Below, piece by piece: positions 39,001-45,000 of a stretch of 62,966 nucleotides of DNA. The position numbers were made by a program. Source of the stretch: Escherichia phage PPwrbA_EC3734; the sequence record LC645450; one strand, 5' to 3'. Position 1 is the first letter of the stretch. Every line of letters starts with the position of its first letter.

Positions 39001-42000
39001 AGGCTTATGTTAACCCACTGGTGGAGTGGATGTTGTTTCGCGCTTTCAGTAAGGATGCTGCCGGTGGCGCAGAATCGGGGCTGGCTGCGCAGCATTATCA
39101 GAGTTTTGTTGAGCAACTTGGGATCAAACAGGGGGCAGACAGTGCATTGTCTGCCCGTAAAAAAGTGTTTAACGGAGGTGGAGTGTGAGTGTTGTTGTTT
39201 CGGGGACGCTGAAATCTCCTGATGGTGAGGCGATATCAGGAGCAAATATTACCCTGACGGCGCTGACAGTTTCACCGGATGCGCTCAGCGGCACCAGTGC
39301 GTCGGCAGTGACCCGTGAAGGTGGATATTACGGAATGACGATGGATCCGGGGGAGTATGCGGTTTCGGTGACGGTGAAAGGGAAGACTGCTGTCTACGGA
39401 CGTGTGCGTATTGAGGGGACCGAAAGTACGGTGACGCTCAATATGCTGTTACGCCGCAGTCTTGTTGAGGTTAGCATACCCGGAGAACTGCTGACAGATT
39501 TCCGGCAGATACAGAATAATGTGGCTGATGACCTTGCCACTATTCGTCGCCTGAATGAAGACACGGCGACAAAAAACACTCAGGCCACACAGTCAAAAGA
39601 AAGTGCAGCAGCCAGTGCGAAGAGTGCATCTGACAGTGCAAAGACGGCAACCAGCAGGGCGGCTGAAGCCGGACAAAAAGCGACTGATGCCACTGAGGCT
39701 GCGACCCGTGCAGTCACAGCAGCGGGGAATGCAGAGGAAAGCTCGACCCGTGCCGGAGAGTCTGAAAAAGCCGCCGGAGCTGATGCAGAAAAAGCCAGAC
39801 AGCATGCTGAAAAGGCCAGGCTGGCGCAGGAGAGCGCCGGAGAGATCCTTAAGCGGGCAGAGGCTGCCACTGTCAGTGCTGAAGAGGCCAGACGTATGGC
39901 TGAGAATGCACGGGGGCCCCGGGGGCCTCAGGGAGAAACTGGTCCGAAGGGGGATGTCGGTCCTAAAGGCGAAACAGGTCCAGTGGGCCCTCAAGGGCCC
40001 GCAGGGCCGAAAGGTGAGCGTGGTGACGTTGGTGCTCAGGGGGCTGTAGGGCCTGCTGGTCCGCGTGGTGAGAAGGGCGAACAGGGGGAGCGAGGACCGC
40101 AGGGAATACCAGGCCTGAAGGGGGATACCGGAGAGCGGGGGCCTAAAGGGGACCAGGGGGATATGGGGCCAAAAGGCGAGAAAGGTGATCCGGGAGGTCC
40201 TGCAGGCCCGCAAGGTCCTAAAGGCGAACGAGGAGAGACCGGACCTCAGGGACCGATGGGAGCACGAGGTGAGCGTGGGGAGACTGGCCCCCGAGGTGAA
40301 CCTGGTCCTGCAGGTCCGAGAGGCGAACGAGGAGAGACCGGACCTCAGGGACCTCGTGGAGAGCCAGGTCCGGCAGGCAGCGCTGCAAATGTGGCTGATG
40401 CAACGACGGCACAGAAGGGAATTGTGCAGTTAAGCAGCGCAACGGACAGTGATGATGAAACGAAGGCTGCCACCCCGAAAGCGGTGAAAGCGGCAATGGA
40501 TGTGGCAAATGAAGCGAAAACAAAGGCAGAAGAGGCTGCAGCAGGAGGTGGTGTTCCCGGTCCGAAAGGAGATAAAGGGGACACGGGGCCAGCAGGTCCG
40601 GCTGGGCCGAAGGGTGATAAGGGAGAGCGCGGTGACACCGGCCCTGTCGGGGCAACCGGCGAACGGGGACCGGCAGGTGATGCTGGTCCGGCAGGCCCGC
40701 AGGGGCCGAAAGGTGACAGGGGAGAGCGGGGAGAGACCGGTCTGACGGGAAATGCAGGTCCACAGGGTCCAAAGGGAGATACCGGTGCGGCAGGCCCGGC
40801 AGGCCCACAGGGACCGAAAGGAGAAACAGGTGCGGCAGGCCCGGTGGGGGCGACCGGACCTCAGGGGCCGAAGGGCGACCCGGGGGAGACGCAAATACGG
40901 TTCCGTCTGGGGCCGGGAAACATTATTGAGACAAACAGCCATGGCTGGTTCCCGGATACAGATGGCGCACTCATCACCGGACTGACCTTTCTTGACCCCA
41001 AAGATGCCACACGGGTTCAGGGTTTTTTTCAGCATTTGCAGGTCAGGTTTGGTGACGGGCCGTGGCAGGATGTCAAGGGGCTGGATGAAGTGGGCAGTGA
41101 TACAGGCAGAACAGGAGAATGACATGAATATTTTGAGAAAGCTTATGCAGAGTCTGTGCGGTTGCGGAAAGCATGATGACTGTGAAAACGGGCAGTCGCT
41201 TACAGCACAACTGCGACTGGGACCGGCAGACATTCTGGAGTCAGATGAGAATGGCATTATTCCGGAGCAGGACAGGGTAATCACACAGGTGGTGATACTG
41301 GATGCAGATAAAAAGCAGATACAGTGTGTGGTAAGACCGCTGCAAATCCTGCGTGCTGACGGGACGTGGGAAAATATTGGCGGGATGAAATAGCCGACAG
41401 CTTCACAAAAACCGGAGCCCGGCTCCGGTTTTTGTTGTCATGTATAGGGGGGGGTTATTAGAGAGTGAAGTAATAAACATGTTAATACGATGGAGTGAAG
41501 GATGCCGTGTAATTCTGGTTCAAGAGTTTTTTATGCCGGAAAATCGCAGGATTATTCTGGATAGTAAAGAATCCTGGTTAATAATCTGTGATAGTCAGTT
41601 GGGCCATTTAATGCGCAGTATGTATCAGGGACGCCGTTTTATTCAGCTGAATCTGGAAAAATTGAAAGGGGTACATGATGTCGCCTTGCCAGTGAAATGG
41701 GAATTCACACGAAGACAGTGAATAGCTTTCTGTATACGGGAATGGCGAAAAATGGACTGTATGGTGTGAGTGTGAAACATCTTGCGTGTGCGGAGTGATG
41801 CTTCTCGTTGCTACAGCGGCAATGATAATGCAGTGAAAAAAGGGGAGCAATATGCTCCCCCAAACCGAAAGAAAATTGCAATAATCAATGAAGTTATTTA
41901 GTCATCATCAGAATGTCATGCAAGGCATTTTGTTTCAGTGATGCCGATCGCGATTTTAGGTAAGCGACTCGTCAGAACCGTATTGATATTTACTGAGAGC

Positions 42001-45000
42001 TCAGATCAACTTTCCAGGGCAACAGATCGCGTACCCGGTTTGCCGGCCAGTCCTGGATATGTTCAATGACGTAACGCAGCCACTTTTCTGGCTCCACATT
42101 GTTCAGACGGCATGTGCCGATCAGCGAGTACAACACCGCCGCATGTTCACCACCGCTGTCGGAACCCGCGAACATCCAGTTTTTCCGGCCTACGGCCACT
42201 CCCCGTAAGGCGTTCTCTGCGATGTTGTTGTCGATTTCCACCCAGCCATTACTGCAGTACACGTTCAGTGCATCCCACTGTTTCAGCAGGTATGCGAACG
42301 CTTTTGCCGTATCTGAGTGACGCGACAGTGTTTTCATCTGTTGCTGTATCCAGTCATACAGTGACTGCATCAGTGGCGCGGCTCTGGCTTTTCTTGCCGC
42401 CAGACGCTGTTCTGCTGAACAGCCCCGGACCTCTGCCTCGATGGCATACAGTTCACCGATACGCTGCAGGGCTTCCGTGGTGATGTAGGTGGGCGCTCTT
42501 GCATGCACATCGTGGATTTTTCTCCGGGCATGAGCCATACACGCGGCTTCCGTTATTCTGCCGGATTCGTATAACGCCCGGTAACCACCGTAAGCATCGG
42601 CCTGAAGCACACCGCTGTAACCGGCCAGGTGATTTTGTGGATGGATACCTTTCCGGTCCGGACTGTACGCGAACCAGACCGCCGGGGGCATCTGTGAACC
42701 GGCGTTACGGTCATCACGGACGTAGACCCACAGCCGGGCTGTCCGGGTTTTACCGCTGCCCGGCTCCTGGACCGGGACGGGGATATCATCAGCATGGACT
42801 TTACCGGGCATCAGCACATACTGGCGCAGGACGTCATACAGCGGCTCCAGCAGTTCAGCAACAGCACCTGTCCAGCGCCCCAGTGTGGCACGGCTCAGCT
42901 CCACTCCCTGACGACGGTATATTTCTGACTGGCGGTATAACGGCAGATGGTCTGCATATTTCCCGGTGACAACATGGGCCAGAAGCCCCGCTCCGGCATA
43001 ACTGCGTGCAATGGGTTTTGAAGGTACTGGTGCCTGCACGATATGGTCGCACCGGCAACAGGCCTGTTTCGGACGTTGTGTTTCGATAACCTTAAAGGCG
43101 CTGCTGATAAGCTCCAGTTGCTCTGACACATCACATCCCAGAGAACTGAGTTCACCACCACAGGCAGGACAGCATTCCTCTTCCGGCCGGATAACCCGGG
43201 TTTCACGGGGAAGTGAGGCCGGTAACGGTTTACGGGCTGAAGACTGGCGCAGGGCGGATGGCAGTACCGGGTCATATTGCTCACCCAGCGTTTCCGCCAT
43301 TTCTTCCTGAAGTGCGCTGATTCGCTCCTGTGCTTCCTGTATCTGCCGTTCGGTTTTTGCACGAAGTTTTTCTGAGCTTTTACCGAACTGCATACGTTGC
43401 AGTTTCGCAACCAGCGCCTTCAGCCGGTTGATTTCGGAAGCATAAGCCGCCACCCGCTGTGAGAGCAGGCGGTTGTATTCAGCCATCTGGCGGATGGTGT
43501 CCTGTTGCGTCTGCAACAGTGCCCGCAGGCGGGCGTTCTCATGAGCAAGTGAGGTGTCCATATCCTCACTTTACAACGGGTTATATGCGGATTCCAGCGC
43601 GTTCCGTTCGTTTCGGGTGCTTCCAGTTGATACCTTCAAGAAGCATGGATAACTGAGCCGGAGTAAGGTGCACCTTGCCGTCACGGGTGACTGGCCAGAC
43701 GAAGCGGCCCCGCTCCAGGCGTTTGGTGAAGAGGCACAGTCCGTCACTGTCAGCCCACAACACTTTTATCTGGTCACCCCGACGTCCGCGGAAGATGAAC
43801 AGGTGTCCGGAGAACGGGTCATCCTTCAGGACGTTCTGAACTTTTGATGCCAGGCCGTTAAAGCCATTTCGCATATCGGTGATACCTGCAACCAGCCAGA
43901 TACGCGAACCTGCAGGGAGAGATATCATCAGTGGCTGCTCCCTTTTATTTCGCGGATAAGTGTCTGTAATAACGCCGGCGTCAGTTTACCTTTAAGCCTG
44001 AGAGTTCCGGCCGGCAGAACCAGCTCACAACACAGACTGTCGGACGGTGTATTTATCTGCTCTGGTTCCTGTGCGGGGGCCGGGATTTTATTATCCGGCT
44101 CCGGCGTTAACGTCACGGGAAGCAGTGCCGGCATATTTTTTCCGGAAGGCAGCAGGCCACCTTTCCGGTATTGATGGCGCCAGTTGAAGAGCAGGTTATC
44201 GTTGATTCCGTTTTCCCGGGCGATCTGCGCCACACAGGCTCCGGGCTGCAGTGACTGCTCCACTAAGGCGATTTTAAACTCATAAGGGAAGTTGGGCCGC
44301 CGGGGACGTTTTTTTACCACGGGGGCTTCGGATATAACGGTGCTTTCAGGACGTACGACTGGTACCGTGGAAAATTGTCCGTAAAGGCAGGCATCAAGTT
44401 CCTGCTCCGACATGCCTGCGGGCAAAGGCCACGAAAGGCCAGCTCTCCGAAAGCGCACGAACATACTACAAACTGTTGATTTTGGTACACCCAGGCGACG
44501 CCCGGCCACAACCCGGGGTAAATGTTCTTCAAAGTGAAGACGTAAAGCTTCAGTGATCCAGGTCCGGTGTTTCATACGATAGTGTCCATTAAAAATGATG
44601 GACATTATTTTTGTAGAGCCGGAGGAAACAGACCAGACGGTTTAAATGAGCCGGTTACGATTTTAGCGAATTCCATCATAAATCCCCTGATTTTTAAGCC
44701 TGAAGCAGTCAAAGGAATTTCTATGCCCTATATCGATATCACCACGATGCGTGGGATGATGCCGCGCGTTGTGACATCCATGCTGCCCGAGCATTCCGCT
44801 GTACTGGCGGAGGACTGCCATTTCCGGTTTGGTGTTATTACACCAGAACGTCAGATATCCGGGGTTGAGAAAACATTCACAATTAAGCCAAAAACAATTT
44901 TTCATTACCGTGACGATTTCTGGTTTGCATGGCCGGATGTGGTGGATGTGATCCGCAGTCCGATCGCTCAGGACCCCCACGGGCGTATTTACTACACTGA

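Follow-up and report, generated by a model that had tools for sequence, protein, structure and literature searches.

The inserted element and its target site

The record of Escherichia phage PPwrbA_EC3734 analysed here (LC645450) is a stretch of 62,966 nucleotides, which we call the window. In its tail region, a full-length insertion sequence (IS) of the IS66 family occupies 2699 bp on the minus strand (41960..44658), enclosed by two identical octamers, GATTTTAG, at 41952..41959 and 44659..44666. The terminal inverted repeat at the tnpC-proximal end (41960..41981, GTAAGCGACTCGTCAGAACCGT) begins with GTAA (GTAAGCG...), and that at the tnpA-proximal end (44637..44658, GTAACCGGCTCATTTAAACCGT as reverse complement) begins with GTAACCG.... 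As this pair of ends was absent from the 25 longest inverted pairs of a repeat finder, the two ends were aligned directly with each other, and the repeats proved imperfect, with 16 of 22 positions identical. Between them lie three minus-strand genes. The first, tnpA (43928..44605), encodes an IS66 accessory protein of 225 aa that matches NCBIfam IS66_access_TnpA with 295.8 bits against a cut-off of 150, as well as Pfam HTH_Tnp_1. The second, tnpB (43581..43928), encodes an accessory protein of 115 aa (Pfam TnpB_IS66, E = 4.7e-40; NCBIfam IS66_TnpB), and it begins on the last base of the tnpA stop (TGATG). The third, tnpC (41990..43561), encodes an IS66-family DDE transposase of 523 aa with the Pfam domains DDE_Tnp_IS66 (E = 2.5e-103), zf-IS66, LZ_Tnp_IS66 and IS66_C, and scores 477.9 bits in NCBIfam transpos_IS66, whose cut-off is 180. 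All three open reading frames (ORFs) are intact and score far above the cut-offs of curated models.

The IS66 family is defined by a DDE transposase TnpC with the IS66 transposase domain, the gene order tnpA-tnpB-tnpC with a tnpA/tnpB overlap for translational coupling, imperfect inverted repeats of about 15-30 bp starting with GTAA, and an 8-bp target-site duplication. The element in the window shows each of these, that is, every defining feature of the family that can be tested in sequence. A preliminary description, made from the sequence of the window alone, had reported a 2699-bp IS66-family element with imperfect inverted repeats; all of its coordinates proved correct, and the match of the three minus-strand ORFs to IS66 TnpA, TnpB and TnpC upholds the family assignment, which can be narrowed to the element that RefSeq calls ISCro1.

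The octamer GATTTTAG occurs twice in the whole window, and both copies abut the ends of the element exactly. Shuffled sequences contain on average 1.79 copies in 63 kb, so that two copies are what chance would provide and the count alone proves nothing. We therefore rely on the empty site, which was built in silico by joining 41352-41959 to 44667-45266 with one octamer kept (1208 bp). Along its whole 1208 bp, this sequence has a continuous, ungapped match of 100% in 933W, VT2-Sakai/Sp5, Stx2 phage I, Min27 and the PA phages, and likewise in about 250 E. coli chromosomes. Because these IS-free relatives carry a single GATTTTAG within flanks that are 100% identical, the octamers are a true target-site duplication. 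The preliminary description had called the duplication intact and had proposed a search for the single target copy in IS-free relatives as the way to refute it; that comparison finds the octamer on both sides of the element and once in the empty site, and the finding passes.

Many E. coli chromosomes and plasmids hold copies that are 100% identical to the element over its 2699 bp, and 1493 of 5426 complete E. coli genomes have a place that covers at least 80% of it. RefSeq labels the transposase of identical E. coli copies, which are accompanied by tnpA and tnpB, as "IS66-like element ISCro1 family transposase". Four other copies, retrieved together with their flanking DNA, differ from the copy in the window at no base and have exactly the same end points. 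Three of them have perfect 8-bp duplications of their own (TATAATTT, CGTTCAAC and AGATATGC), and in the fourth seven of the eight positions agree. The RefSeq copies of ISCro1 thus share the sequence, the ends and the 8-bp duplication of the element in the window and differ from it only in the insertion site. Judging from the RefSeq and Prokaryotic Genome Annotation Pipeline (PGAP) annotation of identical copies, from which the name is taken, the element is the widespread E. coli form named ISCro1, of which the window holds one copy. Its intact ORFs, together with DNA identical to that of hundreds of copies at different sites, imply recent transposition activity, as far as sequence can tell.

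Some points weigh against the name. ISCro1 was named in Citrobacter rodentium ICC168, where it is present in 24 copies (PMC3072379), and our use of the name follows the RefSeq label. The ISCro1 described in E. coli sequence type 131 (ST131) is 2,824 bp long (PMC8764528), as against 2699 bp for the window and the RefSeq copies examined. Furthermore, among species-representative genomes, a 40-mer from the IS end is matched exactly only by two short contigs of metagenome-assembled genomes (L023 and L024, from GTDB representative genomes). Both are labelled as Clostridiales bacterium, and one of them is exactly 2699 bp long with two mismatches to the IS; these contigs are probably an enterobacterial IS that was misbinned. 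C. rodentium was not among the genomes returned by this exact-match scan, and the ISfinder reference of C. rodentium may therefore differ by a few bases at the scanned end.

The occupied site appears to be confined to this prophage. A 601-bp junction query found the junction neither in the 5426 complete E. coli genomes nor in 50,697 phage records, and exact 40-mers found neither junction in IMG/VR, nor the left junction in the Joint Genome Institute (JGI) metagenomes. Relative to other copies and to related phages, there are zero substitutions in the IS, the duplication and both 600-bp flanks. Because nothing has changed in these sequences and the junction is absent elsewhere, the insertion can be regarded as recent and, as far as the searched collections show, private to the source strain. 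This agrees with the preliminary description, which had taken the event to be recent.

Genes around the insertion and transcription across it

Upstream of the IS lie a collagen-like lateral tail fibre (39185-41122), an ORF for the fibre C-terminal domain (ending at 41393) and a small plus-strand ORF (41533..41721, with a longer reading from 41440). The last corresponds to 933W L0123 and belongs to phrog_2014, a hypothetical protein of unknown function; its GC content is 0.41-0.42, compared with 0.51 for the window. The first gene downstream, on the plus strand at 44723..46348, encodes the tail nozzle (541 aa; 933W L0124, phi24B gp57). The insertion hence has a small AT-rich ORF on one side and the next tail gene on the other, as had been described, and that tail gene can now be named. 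Its product is identical to phi24B vb_24B_39 at 539 of 541 residues, and in a preprint on cryo-electron microscopy and proteomics of phi24B the ORF at the vb_24B_39 coordinates is the "gp57 nozzle", a hexamer that closes the tail (10.64898/2026.04.10.717836). In addition, the protein matches PDB 8jov_A, a structure of six chains (E = 7.4e-54), with residue 4 aligned to residue 4, and it is homologous to the hexameric nozzle resolved in virions of podoviruses of the GP4/phi24B type. The next plus-strand gene (46345..47613) overlaps the nozzle stop and encodes a central tail needle or tail-tip fibre of 422 aa (phi24B gp56). This protein is identical to phi24B vb_24B_40 at 422 of 422 residues, is classed among tail fibres by PHROG, and is the central needle in the phi24B preprint (10.64898/2026.04.10.717836). 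With nozzle and needle as the next genes, the IS immediately precedes two essential tail genes, behind which come the remaining genes of the late operon.

The naming of the nozzle differs among resources. Pfam and NCBIfam have no family for the protein, PHROGs labels it "internal virion protein" (phrog_511), and many phage records call its homologues "internal virion protein", "virion-associated protein" or "head closure protein 3". The PHROGs label is contradicted by the phi24B structure, in which the nozzle is an external hexameric tail protein.

The genes of the IS are antisense to the phage late operon, and a scan found no sigma-70-like promoter facing the nozzle gene, either pointing outward from the IS or formed as a hybrid at its end. 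Terminator-like sites are not in excess in the region (4, against 4.6 in shuffles), and two plus-strand sites of this kind lie inside the IS. On the minus strand, a strong terminator-like hairpin with a T-run (GGGGGAGCA-TAT-TGCTCCCC followed by TTTTTT, 41841..41861) stands 99 nt beyond the tnpC end. It is native, being part of the 1208-bp stretch that is matched at 100% in IS-free phages, and transcription leaving the IS would be expected to end there before it reaches the fibre genes. To the right of this hairpin, no minus-strand gene is evident except an ORF of 18 codons that is not conserved. This ORF, which runs across the insertion site (MMEFAKIAIGITETKCLA), was considered as a gene and rejected, as its C-terminal half is not conserved in a relative of the phi419 type. 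Rfam returned only sub-threshold chance matches in 41300-44900. A further hairpin, CCGGAGC-CCG-GCTCCGG, with an A-run on one side and a T-run on the other, stands at 41412-41433, right after the ORF for the fibre C-terminal domain. It was seen by eye, is not listed by the terminator scan, and resembles a bidirectional intrinsic terminator within the late operon.

In lambdoid phages, late transcription is carried out by Q-modified polymerase, which passes intrinsic and Rho-dependent terminators over tens of kilobases. The preliminary description had raised the possibility that the insertion alters the transcription of downstream tail genes. We expect its effect on these genes to be small at induction, since late transcription under Q antitermination should continue across the IS; polarity should be modest, and the phage should still be functional. 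A different outcome has to be considered, in which the insertion is strongly polar, so that nozzle, needle and downstream late genes are blocked or reduced and the prophage lyses its host but yields tail-less, non-infectious heads. Several points speak for such an outcome and against our expectation. Midway through the operon, the insert adds 2.7 kb of antisense RNA that is not translated, with the two plus-strand terminator-like sites inside it, and this RNA could be polar if antitermination is incomplete. Moreover, ISCro1 has lowered the expression of a neighbouring gene elsewhere, as its presence in the afa regulatory region reduced afaA transcription in ST131 (PMC8764528). In addition, the insertion is unique, and there is no sign in the searched collections of an IS-bearing phage that has spread. 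These points are opposed, however, by the known resistance of Q-antiterminated transcription to both classes of terminator, by the native hairpin at 41412-41433, which indicates that the operon already has terminator-like structures to be read through, and by the number of terminator-like sites, which is no higher than in shuffles. Also, the Shine-Dalgarno (SD) sequence and the ATG of the nozzle gene are intact. We consider strong polarity unlikely, though it is to be taken seriously.

The start of the nozzle gene

Whether the insertion is truly intergenic depends on where the nozzle gene begins, and public annotations conflict on the start within its leader, which in IS-free phages consists of 41938-41959 joined to 44667-44722. 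A mechanical ORF list of the window starts the gene at 44567. This start lies inside IS DNA, has a weak SD sequence (-3.2 kcal/mol at a spacing of 2), and produces a 5' extension (44567..44722, plus strand) that is simply a frame without stops, reaching across the junction from inside the IS. It is an artefact of the list, as the preliminary description had recognized. That description had placed the native start at 44723, in agreement with the RefSeq annotation, with the strength of the SD sequence, with the boundaries of homology and with where distant homologues start. The SD sequence AAAGGA (44711..44716, plus strand) lies 6 nt upstream of the ATG at 44723 and is untouched by the insertion, and RefSeq uses this ATG both in the PGAP annotation of EDL933 and in the revised Sakai entry (NP_309259.2). 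In Oslovirus relatives, the DNA is homologous from precisely this ATG onward, and their leader is unrelated. In tblastn searches, distant homologues align from query residue 21-29, the conserved Met being residue 26. The annotated start coincides with the conserved Met in Vibrio phage D53, Ochrobactrum phage POI1126 and Ralstonia phage Gamede; the fourth distant homologue, from BcepMigl, is annotated 11 codons longer. Taking this evidence together, we hold that the ATG at 44723 is very probably the native start.

It would be tempting to read the insertion as intragenic instead, with the nozzle starting at GTG 41938 or ATG 41941, so that the native start has been removed and the protein is either abolished or shortened to the form that starts at 44723. 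The GenBank entries of 933W (L0124), phi24B (vb_24B_39), PA4, P32 and phi419 do start at one of these codons, and in relatives without the IS no stop codon interrupts the frame from 41938 on; if such a start is used, the IS splits codon 7/8 of an extension of 25-26 residues. The 85 nt upstream of 44723 are identical in relatives that otherwise diverge by 8-9%. Furthermore, the Oslovirus relatives Ss-VASD and P8983 also have an open leader, of 22 codons, and no obvious SD sequence before the conserved Met. In the window, what remains of the upstream start is a plus-strand frame that enters the IS and stops after 43 codons (41938..42069). The GenBank starts, the open frames and the identical 85 nt argue against the start at 44723. 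On the other side, the SD sequence of the upstream candidate starts is weak and badly spaced, with a duplex of -3.0 kcal/mol at 11-14 nt compared with -5.6 kcal/mol at 5-6 nt for 44723, and RefSeq prefers the latter. The leader peptide is not conserved, given that the Oslovirus sequence is unrelated and homology starts exactly at the Met, and the starts of three of the four distant homologues, as well as the N-terminus of the homologue with a solved structure, coincide with the Met at 44723. Even if the upstream start were native, the ATG and the SD sequence would remain usable, as both are intact whichever start is used, lying 64 and 52 nt beyond the end of the IS. We thus regard an intragenic insertion as improbable. 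A related idea, that the leader of 25-26 codons is a real N-terminal extension or a translational-coupling leader and that the IS has created a natural mutant with a truncated nozzle or none, seems more doubtful still; were the extension real, this toxin-less 933W-like prophage would make tail-defective particles.

The choice of start determines the N-terminal peptide, which is MPYIDITTMR from the ATG at 44723 and ANSIINPLIFKPEAVK from the upstream extension. The "gp57 loop Arg47-Leu57" of the phi24B preprint was tried as a guide to the start codon and set aside: it fits no candidate numbering, and the database of its authors uses a stop-to-stop ORF of 579 aa.

Finally, the idea that the octamers are coincidental, or that the IS was brought by homologous recombination with another IS-bearing phage, can draw on the chance-level count of two octamers in 63 kb but is practically dismissed, as the octamers adjoin the IS ends exactly, other copies of the IS have 8-bp duplications of their own, no donor with the same junction exists in any collection searched, and the empty-site alignment, with one copy between identical flanks in IS-free relatives, refutes it.

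The host prophage and the meaning of the insertion

From attL (about 160) through to attR (about 61888), the window and phage 933W are collinear. The prophage measures 61,729 bp, or 59,022 bp if the IS is left out, and records of related phages span 56-68 kb. Its right flank encodes RutG and its left end carries an integrase of the 933W type, as expected of a phage integrated at wrbA. In the late and tail region, identity to 933W is 98.9-99.2%, and all late structural ORFs have the same length as in 933W. Compared with 933W, the prophage in the window has no stx genes. Instead, the interval 23622-24402 contains three tRNA genes (23622-23871; Met/Ile-type CAT, Arg and Arg), followed by 366 bp and then a nanS-p-like esterase gene; the 366-bp stretch replaces the 1.65-kb stx2 segment of 933W (21410-23063, stxA2B2). 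This junction without stx is 100% identical in O111:H- 11128, in O111:H8 and in other E. coli. Judged by these comparisons, the host of the IS appears as an otherwise intact-looking, stx-negative 933W-like prophage (Traversvirus) at wrbA. The phages 933W, VT2-Sakai (Sp5) and phi24B (Sepvirinae, Traversvirus) share with it the same empty site (100%), a near-identical late region and integration at wrbA next to rutG, whereas it differs from them in the lack of stx, in a mosaic early region that is closest to Stx phages of O111 and O104 type, and in the added ISCro1.

The early region (window 1-24500) is a mosaic unlike 933W and is closest to prophages of O111:H8, O43, O104:H4 and O145 strains, with 98-99% identity at 83-92% coverage. 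Its genes include a DEAD/DEAH helicase, a protein with an Eco57I-like methylase domain and a restriction endonuclease of the BsuBI/PstI type. At the opposite end, the right-end genes of 933W (the hok/sok region, 57.5-61.5 kb) are missing from the window.

Our results support the following course of events. A full-length and apparently active ISCro1 transposed into a non-coding stretch of roughly 300 nt between the small AT-rich ORF and the nozzle gene, duplicating its target GATTTTAG. Lying antisense to the late operon and ending 64 nt upstream of the ATG at 44723, it spared both the ribosome-binding site and the coding sequence of the nozzle, and it is best seen as a passenger that serves no purpose in the phage. 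Once the prophage is induced, Q-antiterminated transcription of the late genes would pass the 2.7-kb insert, nozzle, needle and later genes would still be expressed, and the 61.7-kb genome should still be packageable. We have high confidence in this account as a whole, namely that ISCro1 recently transposed into the nozzle leader as a passenger, with read-through of the late genes as its predicted part.

As an event, this is the ordinary transposition of a known and very common IS, of a kind that is already known. In C. rodentium and O157, IS elements are found preferentially in mobile elements (PMC3072379), and IS insertions in prophages of the enterohaemorrhagic E. coli (EHEC) type are commonplace, a pattern into which the window fits. 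In cases such as IS629 in O157, a host IS likewise resides in a prophage; the family differs, and the insertion in the window, in contrast to cases of the IS629 type, spares all coding sequences under the best-supported annotation. Its significance therefore lies mainly in annotation: the artefactual start at 44567, the name of the nozzle, the start-codon conflict and the absence of stx. The nozzle gene of this prophage is to be annotated from 44723, and the insertion exposes the conflict over this start between the GenBank and RefSeq records of well-known Shiga toxin phages. Moreover, as the junction is unique in the searched collections, it could serve as a marker of the strain or lineage. 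If the source strain can be obtained, the IS-bearing prophage would also be a convenient natural system in which to see whether late transcription under Q antitermination copes with 2.7 kb of antisense DNA immediately upstream of essential tail genes.

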